Positions 9,389-17,306 of a stretch of 64,000 nt of DNA are shown here, in pieces. The first letter of the stretch is position 1; each line of letters opens with the position of its first letter. Origin of the DNA: Escherichia phage vB_EcoM_JN03; the sequence record OR885871, one strand, 5' to 3'. The position numbers and the translations under genes are program-made. The notes under the pieces are model-generated. The model saw nothing but the letters and a program-made list of their open reading frames with translations, had not been told where the DNA came from and ran no database searches.

Positions 9389-10612
9389 ATGAAAGATAAA
9401 CCATATGACATCCCATATTGCGGTGTCCGTGAAACCAAAATCAAATCAGCCCATCCTATGTTAAGTTCATTCCACCGCCAGCTGGCATATGAATGGATGA
9501 GGGATCGTTATGCGATACATGTCAAGAAGGACGTGCAATGCCTTCCAGCGCCATGGACGGATAATCCGGTATTACGCCAAGTCAAGTTTTGTAACGTGCG
9601 GAGAGAGCACGATAGGCAGTCTCGAAATTTGATCAATAATATCATCCTCGATCAGGATCTCACGCTATCTGACAAAATGTTCAACTGTGTATTGTTCCGC
9701 ATGTACAACATGTGGGAACCTATACAGGCTTTGGGTGGTCCATGGACGATCGAAGAATTCGGAAACATAAATCTTGAATGGTGTCGAGATGTTCTTCAGG
9801 AATTCGAATCTAAAGGTGGCAAAGTTTTCACCAATGCGTTTAATACAGGCGGTCTGAAACAATGCCTGGCTTTCCCTGAACTAGTTGTCAACCACAAGGA
9901 GCAACGCTTTGGCGGCATGAAAGTAAAAGTCCATCGGGTTGGCGGTGTTATAGATGAAATGGATTACAAGGTTGCCAAGAAGCTGGCCGAAGATAATCCT
10001 GGTGAATACAAAATAGAAGGCTGGGAACCATACATGCCGATGCGAGTCATCCGCTCTTTGAAGGCATTCGTCAACAAACACCCTCATTACTTTGATCGCC
10101 TCAGGGAATTTAGCCGTCCCGACTCTGTTTACCAGGCGATGTATGACGACATTGAGGGGCTTGGACCATTCTTGGCATACCAGATTTGGGTTGATTTTAC
10201 ATACATCGATGAATATCCATTCAGTGAAAACCACTTCACTATCGCTGGTCCAGGTTGCCGTGCTGGTATCGATCTGTTATTTTTGGACAAGGACGGCATG
10301 ACGCATGAAGAATGCATATTCTGGGTTCGTGATCATCAAGATCAATTGTTCGCTCAGTATGGGTATAAACGTAATGAATTTTGGTCGGCAGAAGAACCGG
10401 AAGATCGTTGCATGAATGTTATGCAGCTGGAGAACATGTTCTGTGAACTTCAGAAATATACCCGCTGCGTTGAGGCGGTGATGCGCGGGGAGAAACCTCG
10501 AGGAAAGGTGGGGTATGACGGGAATGGCAGTGCGTATAAGCAACGTTGTGATGAAGTCGTCCTCAAACGTGGTTCCGTGAATCTTTTAGAACGTTTGAAG
10601 AAACCTGAATAA
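9389..10612 (+). CDS. hypothetical enzyme-sized protein, 407 aa (candidate nucleotide/base-modification enzyme)
   Basis: ATG with GAGAGGA RBS; no P-loop; no family recognisable by eye; occupies the position where T4 has DNA polymerase. Confidence 0.55.
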   Translation: MKDKPYDIPYCGVRETKIKSAHPMLSSFHRQLAYEWMRDRYAIHVKKDVQCLPAPWTDNPVLRQVKFCNVRREHDRQSRNLINNIILDQDLTLSDKMFNCVLFRMYNMWEPIQALGGPWTIEEFGNINLEWCRDVLQEFESKGGKVFTNAFNTGGLKQCLAFPELVVNHKEQRFGGMKVKVHRVGGVIDEMDYKVAKKLAEDNPGEYKIEGWEPYMPMRVIRSLKAFVNKHPHYFDRLREFSRPDSVYQAMYDDIEGLGPFLAYQIWVDFTYIDEYPFSENHFTIAGPGCRAGIDLLFLDKDGMTHEECIFWVRDHQDQLFAQYGYKRNEFWSAEEPEDRCMNVMQLENMFCELQKYTRCVEAVMRGEKPRGKVGYDGNGSAYKQRCDEVVLKRGSVNLLERLKKPE

Positions 10613-10727
10613 AGATTCCCTTTACTTCATTCTTCAATAACTCTTTTCAACGTATTATTGACCTCACTTAAACGAAGCGCCCTGGCAAACGGGGCGCACA
10701 TTTGAACTGAAACAGGAAGACTATACC

Positions 10728-12746
10728 ATGGCAGAATTCAAACCCTTCGCAACGGCAGTTAATAACAACGTGCTGGCGATGTCCGCAACTGGTCTGTTCA
10801 TGACCAATATCGATAAAGATGCTCTTTGGGATCTGTATCTGGAATCTTTCCCTGCTGGTACCAACCCGCTCTACCGTGAGCGTACCGAGCACGACTGTAC
10901 CTGCTGTAAACAATTCATCCGTAACATCGGCGGTGTGGTCACCATCGACTCCGACCTGAACGTGATTTCCATCTGGGACAACATTGATCTGGGTAATGAA
11001 TATGACGTGGTGGCTGCGGCGCTGTCGGCGTATGTCAAACAACACGCAATCGTCGATGTTTATTTTAACGATTCTGCCAAAGTCGGCCTGTCTCACAATC
11101 ACGAATCTGGTGAAGATGGCAAAATCCGTACTTATAATCATTTCCATACCCAATTACTTGGTAGCTATGTTCTGCGTCCGGACGCAATCGCTTCGAAAAA
11201 AGGTGAAATCCGCCAGGCTATTGAATTGTTTGAACGCGGTCTGCGTGAAATTACTCTGGAATCAGCTGAAATCGTTCTGGAACTGATTGACCAGAATTCT
11301 CTGTATCGCGGCGCAGAACACAAAGCAGCAGTGAAGGGATTTGTTGAAACCAAAAAGGCATATGAACAAGTCCCCGAATCAGCCCGTTCTCTTTGGGCAT
11401 GGCATACTGGATACCGTTCAAACAATCATGTTCCACACGGCATCCGTAACACAGTTATCGGCACTCTGCTGACAGATATCAGCGAAGGCGTGGAACTGGA
11501 AAAGGCTGTTAAATCGTTTGAATCCAAAGTTGCTCCGGCGAACTACAAACGTCCGACAGCGCTGGTTTCAAAATCCATGATCGAAAACGCTCAGAAAGAA
11601 GTTATTGCTCTGGGTTTGGAAGACTCACTGGCGCGTCGTTATGCGGTTTATGATGATCTGACAATCAACAACGTTCTGTTCGCAGATCTGGCTGCTCAGA
11701 AAGCGATGGATCCGTTTGCACAGCTGGCCGCCGAAGTGAAAACTCCGACCAAGTCCCTGGAAAAAGTTGAAGAGATCAGCGTTGATGATTTCCTGAGCAA
11801 TGTTCTGCCAAAAGCGCATTCAATGGAAGTGCTTGTAGAGAATTCTCATACTAGCAACCTGATGTCCCTGGTTGCTCCGGCGAACCCAGATGCGCCTAAC
11901 TTGTTCAAGTGGAACAACGGTTTCTCCTGGTCTTACAATGGTGAAGTGGCCGATTCCATTAAAGAACGTGTAAAGGCTGCTGGCGGTAAAGTTGACGGGT
12001 ATCTGCGCGTTTCCTTGGCGTGGCACAATAACGACGACCTCGATCTGCATATGTTCAACAACATGGAGCACGTTTACTTCCGCGATCGCCGCTCTATGAC
12101 AGGTGCCCATCTGGATATCGATATGAACGGTATGGATGGTATTGATCCAAACCGCGCTCCGGTGGAAAATATCATCTTTACAGATGAAAGCAAGCTGCGC
12201 GATGGTGAATACCGTTTCGAAATCCACAACTACAATCAACGTGAAAAAATCGACGAAGGGTTTGAAGTAGAAGTAGAATACAAAGGCGCAACGCATCGTT
12301 TCAGCCATCCTGGCCTGAAAGATCAGGGGCGTATCACTGCAGTCATCCTGACTGTTAAAGACAAACAAGTTGTTGGCATTAAGTCCGAACTGGCTAATGT
12401 TGATAAGTCTAAAGAAGTTTGGGGTATCAAGACTGCGACCTTCCAGAAAGTACAGCTGGTCCTGAACTCACCAAACCATTGGGATGGCGAGCAGACAGGC
12501 AACAAGCACGTGTTCTTCATCCTGGAAGGTTGTGCTAATCCTGAAGGTACTCGTGGTTTCTACAACGAATATCTGAAGCCAGAACTGGATAAACATCGTA
12601 AGGTTTTTGAAATGTTGGGTAGTAAAATGAAAGTCCAGCCGAATGAAAACCAACTGTCCGGTCTGGGATTCTCGACGACGCAACGCAACCACGTGTTCGT
12701 CAAAGTGTCCGGCGCGTTTAACCGTACTGTAAAAGTCATTTTCTAA
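10728..12746 (+). CDS. large hypothetical protein, 672 aa, codon-optimised
   Basis: AGGAAG RBS; strongly host-optimal codons; Cys cluster HDCTCCKQF; acidic segments WHNNDDLDLH and HLDIDMNGMDGID; no Walker motifs. Confidence 0.7.
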   Translation: MAEFKPFATAVNNNVLAMSATGLFMTNIDKDALWDLYLESFPAGTNPLYRERTEHDCTCCKQFIRNIGGVVTIDSDLNVISIWDNIDLGNEYDVVAAALSAYVKQHAIVDVYFNDSAKVGLSHNHESGEDGKIRTYNHFHTQLLGSYVLRPDAIASKKGEIRQAIELFERGLREITLESAEIVLELIDQNSLYRGAEHKAAVKGFVETKKAYEQVPESARSLWAWHTGYRSNNHVPHGIRNTVIGTLLTDISEGVELEKAVKSFESKVAPANYKRPTALVSKSMIENAQKEVIALGLEDSLARRYAVYDDLTINNVLFADLAAQKAMDPFAQLAAEVKTPTKSLEKVEEISVDDFLSNVLPKAHSMEVLVENSHTSNLMSLVAPANPDAPNLFKWNNGFSWSYNGEVADSIKERVKAAGGKVDGYLRVSLAWHNNDDLDLHMFNNMEHVYFRDRRSMTGAHLDIDMNGMDGIDPNRAPVENIIFTDESKLRDGEYRFEIHNYNQREKIDEGFEVEVEYKGATHRFSHPGLKDQGRITAVILTVKDKQVVGIKSELANVDKSKEVWGIKTATFQKVQLVLNSPNHWDGEQTGNKHVFFILEGCANPEGTRGFYNEYLKPELDKHRKVFEMLGSKMKVQPNENQLSGLGFSTTQRNHVFVKVSGAFNRTVKVIF

Positions 12747-12784: not shown

Positions 12785-13156
12785 ATGTTTGATCAAGCAA
12801 CCCGTTTAAAACTGCGTTTCAACTCTAACAAAGGTCTGCTGTCTGTTGAGCAGGTTTGGGATCTGAACCTGAATGCCCTAAACGAACTGGCGAAAGACCT
12901 CAGCCGTCAGGTGAAGGAAGCCGCCAGCGATGAAGAAGATTTCATCGGCGTGAAAAGCGCAGTCGACTCTCAGTTACAACTGCGTTTCGATATCGTGAAA
13001 GCTATCATCGGTGTTAAACTGAAAGAACGTGACGAAAGCGCAACCGCCGCCGAACGTAAAGCGAATAACCAGGCGATCATGGAACTGATCCAGCGTAAGA
13101 AACAGCAGGAACTGGAAGGTCTCTCTGTTGAAGAACTGGAAAAACTCCTGAAATAA
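12785..13156 (+). CDS. hypothetical protein, 123 aa, charged and probably helical
   Basis: AAGGAA RBS; followed by the terminator at 13180. Confidence 0.55.
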   Translation: MFDQATRLKLRFNSNKGLLSVEQVWDLNLNALNELAKDLSRQVKEAASDEEDFIGVKSAVDSQLQLRFDIVKAIIGVKLKERDESATAAERKANNQAIMELIQRKKQQELEGLSVEELEKLLK

Positions 13157-13179
13157 TCTGTCGGCTCCGGCCTGAGCAA

Positions 13180-13205
13180 CCCCGCCGTGTGCGGGGTTTC
13201 TTTTG
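13180..13205 (+). terminator. rho-independent terminator
   Basis: CCCCGC-cgtgt-GCGGGG hairpin followed by TTTCTTTTGG. Confidence 0.6.
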
Positions 13206-13215
13206 GACAAAGAAT

Positions 13216-13452
13216 ATGAAACAAATTACTAAGACAGTACAAATCACCCAATATCAAACGGATGACGGCAGAGTGTTCGATACTCTTGGTCAGGCCGAAC
13301 ATTATGAGAAGATGAAGTCCGGTATTCGCAAGGTATGCCCTTCTTGTGATGGCAAAGGTCGCGACTCTCCGTCTGGCGACGGGCGTGATATGACGACTTG
13401 TCATTATTGTGGTGGTAAAGGCTGGGTAGAAAAGAAAGAGATATGGGGTTAA
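13216..13452 (+). CDS. small zinc-ribbon protein (CxxC...CxxC), 78 aa
   Basis: CPSCDGKG and CHYCGGKG motifs (DnaJ-type CxxCxGxG zinc finger). Confidence 0.5.
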   Translation: MKQITKTVQITQYQTDDGRVFDTLGQAEHYEKMKSGIRKVCPSCDGKGRDSPSGDGRDMTTCHYCGGKGWVEKKEIWG

Positions 13453-13862
13453 TGAAACCTGTCATCTGTGATTACTGCGGCCTTCCTGCCAAATACGTCA
13501 GTGGTGATGTACTCTACCCTCATCGCCCAGATCTACACAAACTGAAGTTCTGGGTATGCTCGCCATGCGACGCTCGTGTGGGTTGCCATACCCATGGGGA
13601 TGGTAGACAACCTCTGGGAAGGATGGCGAATGCCGCTCTCCGTGCTGCTAAGCAGGAAGCTCATAGGTCGTATGACCCTATCTGGAAAAGTGGGCAGAGG
13701 AGCAGGAGTGATGCTTACAGCTGGCTGGCTCATAATCTGGGGATCAAGAAGCGCGATTGCCATATCGGCTTGTTCGATATCGATATGTGCCGTAAAGTAG
13801 TCGCTGTGTGTAATCAACTAGAGGTGTCAAACGATGTCAAAGGAAATACAAGAATCTTTTGA
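13452..13862 (+). CDS. Cys-rich zinc-binding protein, 136 aa
   Basis: TAATG coupling to the upstream gene; CDYCG...CSPCD cysteine pairs. Confidence 0.5.
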   Translation: MKPVICDYCGLPAKYVSGDVLYPHRPDLHKLKFWVCSPCDARVGCHTHGDGRQPLGRMANAALRAAKQEAHRSYDPIWKSGQRSRSDAYSWLAHNLGIKKRDCHIGLFDIDMCRKVVAVCNQLEVSNDVKGNTRIF

Positions 13863-14085
13863 AAAGTTATCTCAGGTAATGACCGACTGCAACCGCCGAA
13901 ATTATTGCGATGAAGCGTATACGCAATTGAAAACCGTCGTCGAATCTGAGTTGAATAACCTTTCAACTTTTAAAGATATTCAGACCGAAGTGCTATATCT
14001 GTCGGATGAAGATTTAAGGCGTTGTCCCCGCAAGATTTACCAATTACTGGATCGTTTGGTGAAAGTGGGGGTGGATAATGGGTAA
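13834..14085 (+). CDS. hypothetical protein, 83 aa
   Basis: GAGGTG RBS 7 nt upstream. Confidence 0.45.
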   Translation: MSKEIQESFEKLSQVMTDCNRRNYCDEAYTQLKTVVESELNNLSTFKDIQTEVLYLSDEDLRRCPRKIYQLLDRLVKVGVDNG

Positions 14086-14803
14086 TCGTGAAGGGATTAA
14101 ACTCACACAAGAACTTCTGAAGTCACATATTGCTGAAGTGATTTATGAAGACCGTGAAGTCGGTGGCCATCGTGTCATTACATGCCACTTCAAGATGGAC
14201 AATGGCTTCGTCGTCTGGGGGAAGAATAGTTCAACTTCTATCGACCCAGCCAACTTTGATGAAGAGTTGGGTAAGAAACTGGCCTATGAAAAGACCTTCT
14301 CCCAGCTGTGGGAACTGGAAGCATATCGCGCGATGGTAGAAAGGCAGATTATCGATGTGTCCGTCAAAGATGCTAAGATCAACATTGATGAATATGTGTC
14401 AGAAAGGGAAGCGATACATGAGATGGGTGGTTCTGAATTCCTTAAGGGTAAAGGACAATCCGTCGTGTTTCGTCATCCCAAGGATCCAAGTCGGGGATTT
14501 CGAGTTGAATTTGTTCGCACCGATAATGAACGTTATAACGAACGGCGTAATGGTGAAGCAAGATCTTTGGTGGAAGCGTATCTTCGCTCATTCATGACTT
14601 CTGAAGAACTAAATTCTGAACTTGTCTTGCGTTTGGCGAAAACGTGTAATGCTGCTTCAGGGGATTATCCGTGGTGTGACCTGTCAGAAGACAAACGCCA
14701 AGCAGCTTGTGATCGTGTTAAGAAATTCTTGTTAGATCCGAAAGCCCAACCTGGTGATTCCGTGGGGGCGCTGTATAGAGCCATCGTGGTGTCCTACTTG
14801 TGA
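14078..14803 (+). CDS. hypothetical protein, 241 aa
   Basis: GGGGGTGG RBS; overlaps the upstream stop. Confidence 0.55.
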   Translation: MGNREGIKLTQELLKSHIAEVIYEDREVGGHRVITCHFKMDNGFVVWGKNSSTSIDPANFDEELGKKLAYEKTFSQLWELEAYRAMVERQIIDVSVKDAKINIDEYVSEREAIHEMGGSEFLKGKGQSVVFRHPKDPSRGFRVEFVRTDNERYNERRNGEARSLVEAYLRSFMTSEELNSELVLRLAKTCNAASGDYPWCDLSEDKRQAACDRVKKFLLDPKAQPGDSVGALYRAIVVSYL

Positions 14804-14902: not shown

Positions 14903-15097
14903 ATGTCCGTAAAAATGAAAATTGATATGACCAAACCATTTTTGCGTTCAGGAGTTGACTCTCTTGACTCACAGTTTAAACCCAGCGAAGTTTTAATCCA
15001 ACAGATTGAGACTAATCGCGAATTCATAGAACACATGCTGGTGAAGCCGGAAGGTGAAGCCGTCCATACCACTAAAGAAGGTAATAACGATGATTGA
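14903..15097 (+). CDS. small protein, 64 aa, translationally coupled to the vWA gene
   Basis: GAGGAA RBS; stop overlaps the vWA ATG by 8 nt. Confidence 0.45.
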   Translation: MSVKMKIDMTKPFLRSGVDSLDSQFKPSEVLIQQIETNREFIEHMLVKPEGEAVHTTKEGNNDD

Positions 15098-17306
15098 ATC
15101 ATTAACATTTAAGAATGCGGTTGCGACCGTCGCGCCGTCTAACCATGTAATCGTTGTGGATATCTCCGGTTCCATGTATCGTTCACTTCCAGAAGTCCGT
15201 AAGCATCTGAAGGAGAACCTGCCTTCCCTGGTGAAACCGGAAGATACTGTGAGCATCCTTTACTTTTCATCTCGCGGTGATTTCGGAACGGTATTTGCCG
15301 GACGTCAGATTAACAGTGCAACTGACCTCAGTGAGATCAATAATCTAATTGACCGTTTCCTGAAGCCTTCTGGTTGTACTGGTTTTGTTGAGCCGCTGAA
15401 ACTGGCTGCGGAAACTGCCATTAGCCTGAATAAACCTGGTTATGTTAACAACCTGGCATTCATGACCGACGGGTATGACAACTGCTGGCGTTCTAATGAA
15501 ATCCTGGATGCCGCTGAAGTACTGCCCAAAGCGTTTGATAACATTACCTTCATCGAATACGGTTGGTATTGTAATCGCGAACTGCTGGGGCTAATGGCAG
15601 AACGTTCTGGTGCGACCCACGTATTCGCCGAAGGACAGAATGAATATCAGACCGAATTGGAAAACGTGCTGAAAACTTCTTCACCGAAAGTTGTAGTCGA
15701 TGTTCCTCTGGTTTATACCCATGCCATTTATGTTGAAAATGGCGTGGCGACTGTTTTAGCTGTGCATCCTGATGAAGAGCACCCTATTGGCCACGTCAGC
15801 ATCCCTGAAAGCGTTTCTCAGCTGTGGGTTGTAAACCCCAACATGATCGACCAGCTGGATAATCTGGCAGACATCCAAGCGGCATACGTGCTGGCATTTT
15901 ACGGCGTGTATACCATGGACGCAGATTTGGTTTGGGCTGCGCTGAAGAAAACGGGAGATGTTCGTTTCATCAAACAATACAGCAACTGTTTCACCAAGCA
16001 GGACTATTCCAACATCAAAGTCGATCTGACCCAGGCTATCGTGGATGAAACTCTGCGCGGCGTAGATGGCATCGATTACAATATGGTTCCGGCTGAAGAC
16101 GCCACCACCATTGTTGATGTTCTGACGTATTTGGCTGAAGCAGATGTCTCTATCGTCACCAAGCATCCGCTATTCTCTTACAAGAGCATTGGGCGCGGTA
16201 CTATACAAAAAGTTGACGACACCGAAGACAAGTTGGCCGAAGAGATTGCGAATGCGACTTCTAAAGAAGAGCGTAAAGCCCTGGCGCTCAAACTGGCCGA
16301 GCACGAAGATTGGACGCCGGAATTCAATCCAGCAGATGATAAAGGGATTGTCCCGATCAGCAATTTGGTCTATAATTCAGAACGTCCTAACATCAGTGTG
16401 CAGACAGTTCAACACGGAACGGTTATTGTGCCTGAGTTTGTACAGAAGAAATATGAACTTCCTGAAGAGCTGGGAACCTGGCGTTATCGCAATTACACCA
16501 TTGTCAAGGATGGTATCATCAACCTGAAAACAATGCCTATCACTGCAGATTCTCCGATTGTTCGGGCTAAGGTGGCACAGGATTTGACTGCCATGGGTGT
16601 TCATGTGTTTGGTGGGCCGGAAGTCTTCATTGTAAATCTGGAAAGTGTCCCAATGGTTAACCGCGCCATGACAAAGAATATCAGTGCTGCTGAATTCTTT
16701 GCAGACAATGTGCGCCGTGAAGCATTGAAGGCAAAGCAAAAAGTTCTGAAATTCTACCGTGATGAACTGGTTGGCAAAGGCAACGCTACTGGTCTGGCTT
16801 CAAAATATGGCAAAGAAGCGGCTGATTTCCTGTCAGCAAACGGCATTCGCGACTATGGATTTTCACCGAAGACTTCTTCTGTAGAATCAACCGATGTCTA
16901 TATGAGTCGTGAATTGAATGTGAAAATCAAAGGCGCATCTTCACTGCCGAGCATCGCGTCTGTTATCAAAAAACAGACGGACGGTAAAAAACTGAATGTC
17001 GCTGATCAGCTGATCGCTAATGCCCTGGCCGAATACAATGCGTTTGTTAAATCGCCGATGATCACCAGCGTACCGGAAGAGACTCAGAAAAAGCTGATCG
17101 AAAGTTGGATTGGTGATGCAGCAAAAGCAGCTATCAACGAAGTTCGATCTCTGAACAAAACGCTGTCCAAGGTAGTTTATGGGATTGTTGCAGGCCATGG
17201 TTGGTTTACCGACCTGGATTTGGAAGAATCCACTATGGATGTGGAAGTTGATGGGGTGAAATACACTGTCACTGCCGAACTGGCTGAAAAAGAAGTCAAA
17301 ATCTAA
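15090..17306 (+). CDS. von Willebrand factor A (vWA) domain protein with MIDAS motif, 738 aa
   Basis: N-terminal VVVDISGSM (DxSxS MIDAS) followed by T and D motifs typical of vWA folds; long C-terminal region of unknown function; optimised codons. Confidence 0.75.
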   Translation: MIESLTFKNAVATVAPSNHVIVVDISGSMYRSLPEVRKHLKENLPSLVKPEDTVSILYFSSRGDFGTVFAGRQINSATDLSEINNLIDRFLKPSGCTGFVEPLKLAAETAISLNKPGYVNNLAFMTDGYDNCWRSNEILDAAEVLPKAFDNITFIEYGWYCNRELLGLMAERSGATHVFAEGQNEYQTELENVLKTSSPKVVVDVPLVYTHAIYVENGVATVLAVHPDEEHPIGHVSIPESVSQLWVVNPNMIDQLDNLADIQAAYVLAFYGVYTMDADLVWAALKKTGDVRFIKQYSNCFTKQDYSNIKVDLTQAIVDETLRGVDGIDYNMVPAEDATTIVDVLTYLAEADVSIVTKHPLFSYKSIGRGTIQKVDDTEDKLAEEIANATSKEERKALALKLAEHEDWTPEFNPADDKGIVPISNLVYNSERPNISVQTVQHGTVIVPEFVQKKYELPEELGTWRYRNYTIVKDGIINLKTMPITADSPIVRAKVAQDLTAMGVHVFGGPEVFIVNLESVPMVNRAMTKNISAAEFFADNVRREALKAKQKVLKFYRDELVGKGNATGLASKYGKEAADFLSANGIRDYGFSPKTSSVESTDVYMSRELNVKIKGASSLPSIASVIKKQTDGKKLNVADQLIANALAEYNAFVKSPMITSVPEETQKKLIESWIGDAAKAAINEVRSLNKTLSKVVYGIVAGHGWFTDLDLEESTMDVEVDGVKYTVTAELAEKEVKI

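Follow-up and report, generated by a model that had tools for sequence, protein, structure and literature searches.

We report that two adjacent genes encoding small cysteine-rich proteins, ORF1 and ORF2 (ORF, open reading frame; 78 and 136 amino acids [aa], respectively), in a 64,000-nucleotide (nt) stretch of Escherichia phage vB_EcoM_JN03 (sequence record OR885871; hereafter the window) are, with a probability of roughly 0.6, two independent and already catalogued accessory genes that have become neighbors through a cassette insertion/deletion (indel), with ORF2 acting as a nucleic-acid-binding and ORF1 as a protein-binding protein. A sequence-only reading of the window had presented them as a pair of coupled zinc/Cys-rich proteins, one with two CxxCxGxG motifs and the other with CxxC pairs, joined by a TAATG overlap. 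The motifs are as described, since CPSCDGKG and CHYCGGKG in ORF1 and the pairs C6/C9 and C36/C39 in ORF2 are read directly in the sequence, and the two genes are indeed small, Cys-rich and coupled here; however, their distribution and the cassette indel show that they are not a conserved pair. The coordinates of all features are listed in Table 1.

The two genes differ in how widely they are distributed. ORF1 (identity at least 95%) was present in 35 phage records vs 196 records with the family to which ORF2 belongs, DUF3268 (identity at least 80%), and in most Ackermannviridae DUF3268 occurs without ORF1. Specifically, the Ackermannviridae loci show four arrangements downstream of a conserved 123-aa gene: DUF3268-ORF4 (Det7, IME250 and most others examined), DUF3268-ORF3-ORF4, ORF1-DUF3268-ORF3-ORF4 (the present window), and ORF1-DUF3268-ORF4 (a diverged metagenomic lineage). 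Moreover, homologues of ORF1 are found where DUF3268 is missing. The Asteriusvirus jumbo phages (121Q, PBECO4 and 7t3-like) carry them with 42-53% identity and no DUF3268 neighbor, always between the same other genes, i.e. 3' of a Ser/Thr phosphatase gene and 5' of an ~400-aa gene and a DNA ligase gene, with directly adjoining small genes that vary (a PTH2-like hydrolase in 121Q); the homologue in phage Lewi has again different neighbors and no DUF3268 beside it. Among 68 non-Ackermann viral DUF3268 loci none had an ORF1-family gene. Co-occurrence of ORF1 and DUF3268 across independent lineages was, in summary, largely not found, with a weak doubt kept alive by two loci, L178 and L239, discussed below.

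At the DNA level, alignment of loci with and without ORF1 revealed that the gene corresponds to a clean 236-bp indel positioned exactly between two copies of the 7-nt direct repeat ATGAAAC, with the right copy holding the ORF2 start codon; relatives lacking ORF1 have one copy (...AAAGAATATGAAACCTGTC...). This junction is compatible with deletion between the repeats and with insertion alike, and either event, mediated by microhomology at the two start codons, would explain the ORF1 polymorphism. The ORF1 cassette takes over the ribosome-binding context that cassette-less phages use for DUF3268, and DUF3268 is thereby left to rely on the TAATG stop-start overlap, in which the last base of the ORF1 TAA is the first base of the ORF2 ATG (one shared base). 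The coupling can be ascribed to the position of the cassette junction, because this falls at the start codon. In the diverged metagenomic lineage, DUF3268 starts with GTG right after the ORF1 stop. Overlaps between stop and start are the norm along the operon, since ORF2/ORF3 and ORF3/ORF4 overlap as well. ORF3 constitutes a second presence/absence cassette, and in genomes lacking it ORF2 is shorter, at 124-128 aa, while ORF4 is present as a divergent allele with an identity of about 46% or about 66%. With respect to the ORF2 start, an upstream ATG at 13443 (giving 139 aa, as in the PhiSH19 annotation) was considered and dropped; 13452 is the conserved start because relatives without ORF1 have only the MKP start.

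ORF2 belongs to Pfam DUF3268 (PF11672; E 4.5e-37, 127.5 bits vs a cut-off of 28.4) over its full length, with residues 3-122 covering profile positions 2-120 of 121, and it also matches phrog_1934 (E 1.2e-56). Like other members of PF11672, which Pfam calls a 'zinc-finger-containing domain', and of PHROG 1934, ORF2 has the CxxC...CxxC ribbon, the Cys/His pattern and the typical length of ~120-135 aa, differing solely by a C-terminal tail that is 9-12 residues longer in genomes also carrying ORF3. The protein has eight cysteines, i.e. the two CxxC pairs (C6/C9, 13467-13478; C36/C39, 13557-13568) and four more. In an alignment of 114 DUF3268 sequences C6, Y8, C9, C36, C39, R64, H71, W78, R85, Y89 and H104 are invariant, while C45, H46, C103 and C113 are at least 90% conserved, and all are present in ORF2. 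The family is basic (ORF2 pI [isoelectric point] 9.2; family median 9.07, with 91% of the members above pI 8), and positions 25, 57, 64, 67, 79 and 85 are kept as Lys/Arg, the basic set in ORF2 being R25, R57, R64, K67 and R85. AlphaFold2 based on the 114 sequences gave a confident model (pLDDT [predicted local distance difference test] 95.6; pTM [predicted template modelling score] 0.84) with a zinc ribbon at ~1-46 (strands 14-17, 32-36 and 41-45) that packs onto a three-helix domain at 61-132 (helices 61-79, 85-96 and 110-132). A second metal site, tying the ribbon to the helices, may be provided by the near-invariant C45, H46, H71, C103, H104 and C113.

Comparison with known structures and systems placed the DUF3268 fold apart. 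The literature gave no function for PF11672 and searches of the PDB no solved structure; a Foldseek search with the ORF2 model against the PDB returned nothing significant (top match the Rpb9 zinc ribbon, E 0.4), and against BFVD all matches were phage proteins that are themselves uncharacterised, among them Listeria P100 gp150. When the DUF3268 profile was searched against PDB sequences there was one marginal match, MasE (9o8u_D; E 3.6e-4), which in 1-methylalkylsuccinate synthase is the small subunit. The alignment takes in the first 55 residues of the profile, with the CxxC-(~26)-CxxC spacing shared, but is confined to the ribbon; MasE lacks the helical domain and its context is unrelated (a glycyl-radical enzyme). 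This is the sole near-significant link of DUF3268 to a solved structure and it covers ORF2 residues 4-59 (13461-13628). Fusions of DUF3268 to other domains (P0102, P0125 and P0126) provided no informative second domain. A 'DUF3268 RNA motif' (Rfam) is named in the k-junction literature; it gave no match between 10000 and 17000 of the window at permissive thresholds, nor at gathering thresholds in 19 bacterial-genome DUF3268 loci and one Enterococcus phage locus, these scans returning no other Rfam family either, and the source paper of the motif does not mention DUF3268, at least in its main text.

DUF3268 was detected in 676 of 50,697 phage records using tblastn, and the family profile gave 565 clusters. 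The phages include Ackermannviridae, siphophages of Pseudomonas, Xanthomonas, Vibrio and Stenotrophomonas, and Enterococcus Herelleviridae, and the family is also present in bacterial assemblies (Proteobacteria, Clostridia, Bacteroidota, Paenibacillus and others). To describe its neighborhood, the nearest two genes to the left and to the right of DUF3268 at the 68 non-Ackermann viral loci were scanned with Pfam, and the corresponding genes at 80 bacterial-genome loci were clustered and ten recurrent ones scanned. Recurring neighbors were SSB (single-stranded DNA-binding protein), PD-(D/E)XK and YqaJ nucleases, AAA_24 (Sak4), RecT, ERF, DNA polymerase A, DEAD/SNF2 helicases, HNH, RusA, NinG, a replisome organiser, DUF4942/DNA methylase, dUTPase and dCTP deaminase, and there was in addition one weak G39P-like helicase-loader match. 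In Kakheti25, for example, DUF3268 lies between SSB and a Cas4-type exonuclease. The dominant setting is a replication/recombination or 'nin-like' module, with no single fixed partner. A basic zinc-ribbon protein in such a setting is most simply understood as a nucleic-acid-binding accessory factor, and ORF2 is therefore probably a Zn-dependent one that works together with phage DNA replication/recombination functions. The sequence-only reading had noted that small phage zinc-finger proteins are often early regulators or host-factor binders; the gene context of ORF2 speaks for replication/recombination modules instead.

The same nuclease-rich neighborhoods, together with the residues H24, D27, H46, N60, H71, D75 and H104, which are invariant or nearly so, might indicate that DUF3268 is an enzyme, e.g. 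a small metal-dependent nuclease using these His/Asp/Asn residues, and the profile has a weak match to the Zn/HNH-type restriction endonuclease Hpy99I. This match is, however, non-significant (E 1.2), the Foldseek PDB matches listed include neither a beta-beta-alpha-Me/HNH nor any other nuclease fold, and the second CxxC of ORF2 sits in a beta-hairpin knuckle of zinc-ribbon style and not in a helix as in HNH proteins. Given the predicted fold and this topology we ruled out an HNH nuclease identity for ORF2, and we regard an enzymatic role of any kind as very unlikely.

Turning to ORF1, the protein has a full-length match to phrog_12574 (E 2.2e-41; residues 3-78 on profile positions 1-75 of 75), and an exhaustive HMMER search identified homologues in 82 representative clusters. 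An alignment of 42 diverse family members showed no variation at C62 and C65 and at least 90% conservation at C41 and C44, and an N-terminal Y..DG..F...A..HE pattern and a C-terminal Trp are conserved as well. Conservation of the cysteines in homologues had been set beforehand as the test of the sequence-only reading; it was borne out for these 42 sequences as well as for the 114 DUF3268 sequences, and both proteins almost certainly bind zinc. In the AlphaFold2 model built with the family alignment (pLDDT 90.4), a pair of short strands and a helix at 24-35 precede a zinc knuckle formed by a beta-hairpin. The best Foldseek PDB matches are all DnaJ-type zinc fingers, i.e. DnaJA2, anti-TRAP and BSD2 (probability 0.96-1.0), with E-values of just 0.05-0.3, the domain being tiny, and the ORF1 family profile matches the CR domain of E. 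coli DnaJ (1exk) with E 3.1e-5. All curated cut-offs were missed, both in Pfam (DnaJ_CXXCXGXG, 20.8 vs 32.7 bits; Anti-TRAP, 19.6 vs 32) and in NCBIfam (RtpA NF058604, 21.1 vs 65 bits; DnaJ TIGR02349, 21 vs 377 bits). Moreover, ORF1 has no J domain according to Pfam, no HPD tripeptide anywhere in its 78 aa and two of the four DnaJ repeats. Hence, ORF1 is neither a DnaJ nor an anti-TRAP protein, but a protein standing on its own that has a single zinc knuckle of the DnaJ-CR / anti-TRAP type as its core.

The likeness to each of the three known systems is confined to this knuckle. As in the DnaJ/Hsp40 CR domain (PF00684; 1exk; DnaJA2, 7zhs), one zinc centre is made up of two CxxCxGxG motifs on a beta-hairpin pair, and the Foldseek probability to DnaJA2 is 1.0. 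DnaJ, however, has two zinc centres, a J domain with HPD, a G/F region and C-terminal substrate-binding domains, whereas ORF1 has one centre and none of the rest, and its N-terminal strand-helix module is unrelated to DnaJ. Anti-TRAP (RtpA; PF15777; 2bx9, 3ld0) is likewise very small, is essentially one DnaJ-like zinc knuckle and works purely by binding another protein; it gave the best superposition with ORF1 (root-mean-square deviation [rmsd] 1.9 Å over 40 residues, probability 1.0), but ORF1 has the extra N-terminal module and lacks the C-terminal helix of anti-TRAP. BSD2, a plant Rubisco assembly factor (6ekb, 6ekc), is a small DnaJ-type zinc finger that caps its client, with a Foldseek probability of 0.96 to ORF1, but no relation to ORF1 was detected at the sequence level, and both its kingdom and its client are different. 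DnaJ-type zinc knuckles act as protein-binding modules in DnaJ, anti-TRAP and BSD2. The pI of the ORF1 family is variable (median 6.3), and that the family is not consistently basic argues for protein binding over nucleic-acid binding. By analogy, ORF1 is probably a protein-binding module for a host or phage protein. Fusions of ORF1 relatives to other domains (P0156, P0159 and others) had no informative second domain.

Two observations concern the N-terminal part of ORF1. The module (Y.T.DG..FDTLGQAEHY) is also found fused to an unrelated C-terminal region in a 148-aa protein (locus L099). In addition, the FDTLGQAEHY segment resembles the N-terminus of the anti-CRISPR protein AcrIIC5 (8f3k), with 61% identity and an rmsd of 0.4 Å over 18 residues, a resemblance that is statistically non-significant (E 0.08-3).

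A more specific proposal, which overlaps with our reading of ORF1 as a protein-binding module, is that ORF1 is a host-takeover or anti-defence protein similar to anti-TRAP, where the knuckle blocks a host protein and the N-terminal module oligomerises or gives specificity, with ORF2 being unrelated. The patchy, cassette-like spread over unrelated phages, the small size and the fold match to a pure protein inhibitor are in keeping with this, and the likeness to AcrIIC5 gives it a faint boost. As stated above, however, the anti-TRAP scores are all below the curated thresholds and the AcrIIC5 likeness is non-significant. To our knowledge, Salmonella and E. coli, the hosts of these phages, regulate trp without TRAP and enterobacteria have none. 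Furthermore, ORF1 had no match in PADLOC, the models of which cover defence systems and not anti-defence proteins. Taken together, we consider this proposal unlikely in its specific form, while the broader suggestion that ORF1 is an early regulator or host-factor binder, as made from the sequence, is plausible.

Some of our data weigh against treating ORF1 and ORF2 as two independent genes with the roles given above. The ORF1-DUF3268 adjacency is kept in the diverged Ackermannviridae-like lineage (81% / 74% identity), a weak hint of association. A scan of unrelated DUF3268 loci of viral, genomic and metagenomic origin, ~1.25 Mb in all, gave just two ORFs with at least two CxxCxGxG motifs, and both are direct same-strand neighbors of DUF3268. 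One, in a metagenome-assembled genome of Flavobacteriales (L178, positions 2703-2858 of that locus), encodes 51 aa upstream of DUF3268 and is of Anti-TRAP/DnaJ-type with sub-threshold scores; the other (L239, ~1514-1915, ~133 aa) lies just downstream of DUF3268. The chance that both would adjoin DUF3268 is ~0.04, a crude estimate assuming ~ten genes per locus with n=2. Moreover, the neighborhood of DUF3268 is heterogeneous, with the gene residing in a tail-gene island in PhiSTP1 and beside NUDIX/terminase genes in Mecenats66, and for neither family did PHROG, the literature, BFVD, NCBIfam or PADLOC provide an experimental or annotated function.

These adjacencies might reflect a functional two-protein module, where ORF1 is a dedicated DUF3268 partner (a chaperone for folding or zinc loading, or else a regulator or co-factor) and the coupling sets the stoichiometry. 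The TAATG overlap, the adjacency kept in the second lineage and the L178 and L239 loci are what such a module predicts, but an adjacent ORF with two CxxCxGxG motifs was seen at only 2 of the ~227 DUF3268 loci scanned outside Ackermannviridae, most Ackermannviridae have DUF3268 by itself, the ORF1 family lives without it in Asteriusvirus and Lewi, and stop-start overlaps are usual along the operon. Hence, we judge a dedicated module to be quite unlikely. More far-reaching is the proposal that DUF3268 represents an unrecognised class of Zn-dependent DNA/RNA-binding proteins of phage replication/recombination modules, with a fold new to the PDB, for which DnaJ-type zinc-knuckle proteins are recurrent dedicated partners, acting as chaperones or regulators. 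The three independent adjacencies (Ackermannviridae, the Flavobacteriales prophage [L178] and the metagenomic phage [L239]) fit with recurrent partnership; nevertheless, we give this proposal only a slim chance. We thus favor two independent accessory genes brought together by the cassette indel.

That ORF1 and ORF2 are real genes under purifying selection is evident from the ratios of non-synonymous to synonymous substitution rates (dN/dS), which relative to the diverged metagenomic relative are 0.05 for ORF1 and 0.08 for ORF2, and 0.25 for ORF2 relative to Det7. Both genes are already catalogued (Pfam DUF3268, PHROG 1934 and PHROG 12574). ORF1 is identical to deposited proteins of ST-W77, CBA120 (orf149), PhiSH19 and others, and ORF2 has 89-99% identity to deposited homologues. 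In the records of relatives both are labelled 'hypothetical protein', with ORF1 once labelled 'putative chaperone protein', and in the 2011 PhiSH19 paper (PMC3220722) the homologue of ORF2 is tabulated under 'Protein of unknown function (DUF3268)'. NCBIfam and PADLOC scans of both genes gave nothing above threshold, and the literature on function or on Kuttervirus transcription timing held nothing relevant to ORF1/ORF2. HMO-2011-type phage DNA polymerases and Loki gp45, in which CxxCxGxG inserts occur, were also considered; these are different proteins.

Table 1. Features of the ORF1/ORF2 region of the window (positions refer to the window; position 1 is its first nucleotide).
Feature	Position	Strand	Remarks
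Terminator-like hairpin	13178-13205	+	AACCCCGC-CGTGT-GCGGGGTT and T tract; separates ORF1 from the 123-aa gene upstream
ORF1	13216-13452	+	78 aa; ATG at 13216, stop TAA at 13450-13452
Left ATGAAAC copy	13216-13222	+	7-nt direct repeat, one bound of the ORF1 cassette
ORF1 N-terminal strand-strand-helix module	13243-13323	+	Residues ~10-36; Y..DG..F...A..HE; remainder of the protein is a single zinc knuckle
First CxxCxGxG	13336-13359	+	CPSCDGKG, residues 41-48; C41, C44 and G46 at least 90% conserved
Second CxxCxGxG	13399-13422	+	CHYCGGKG, residues 62-69; C62 and C65 invariant (n=42)
Right ATGAAAC copy	13452-13458	+	Holds the ORF2 start codon
ORF2	13452-13862	+	136 aa; ATG at 13452-13454, stop TGA at 13860-13862; DUF3268 (PF11672)
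ORF2 zinc-ribbon core	13467-13568	+	C6-x2-C9 ... C36-x2-C39; all four Cys invariant
ORF3	13834-14085	+	83 aa, acidic, phrog_9847; 29-nt overlap with the ORF2 3' end; context only
ORF4	14078-14803		Overlapped by ORF3; N-terminus matches the Phage_gp49_66 domain

The window belongs to Kuttervirus (Ackermannviridae); the region has 99.4% identity to Salmonella phage Se_AO1, while PhiSH19, Se-B, ST-W77 and many more Kuttervirus genomes have 96-98% identity to it. Between the conserved upstream gene and ORF1 there is a strong terminator-like hairpin (13178-13198) with an 8-bp stem including 6 GC pairs, followed by the T tract and positioned 17 nt upstream of the ORF1 start. It is near-identical in Det7 and at two further loci, L015 and, with a difference in one loop base, L013, and it is kept in Kuttervirus relatives with and without ORF1. 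A promoter scan of the segment between the hairpin and ORF1 gave nothing convincing, and the operon would therefore be expressed via read-through or from a promoter type outside the coverage of the scan. A sigma-70-like site at 13128-13157 was rejected as promoter, as it precedes the terminator and such sites are no more numerous in the region than in shuffled sequence.

With both genes present in identical or near-identical form in dozens of deposited Kuttervirus genomes, the window itself carries very little weight. The DUF3268 family, on the other hand, is very widespread and has a confidently predicted fold without a PDB analogue, such that a structure and a DNA/RNA-binding role would annotate hundreds of phage genomes. 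For ORF1, the 236-bp indel offers a natural isogenic Kuttervirus comparison, with and without the gene, in which its function can be addressed.

Finally, we made some observations on other genes in the vicinity. A 672-aa protein (10728-12746) with the motif TEHDCTCCKQF, whose gene keeps its position two genes 5' of DUF3268 throughout Ackermannviridae, is annotated in the Se-B RefSeq record as 'DNA-directed RNA polymerase'; it had no NCBIfam or PADLOC match and the polymerase annotation looks unsupported. Downstream, a 750-aa protein (15054-17306) has a weak N-terminal vWA-like match with a DISGSM motif (E 1.5e-6 with NCBIfam VWA-containing models, far below their cut-offs). Other Kutterviruses carry a 135-aa Cys-rich, zinc-ribbon-like gene (MKPVKHHRSWKVCPACS...CQVC...) between the ~402-aa and 672-aa genes (e.g. 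1525-1932 of locus L001), where the window has a mere 116-nt gap (10612-10728), and this gene is thus another variable cassette.

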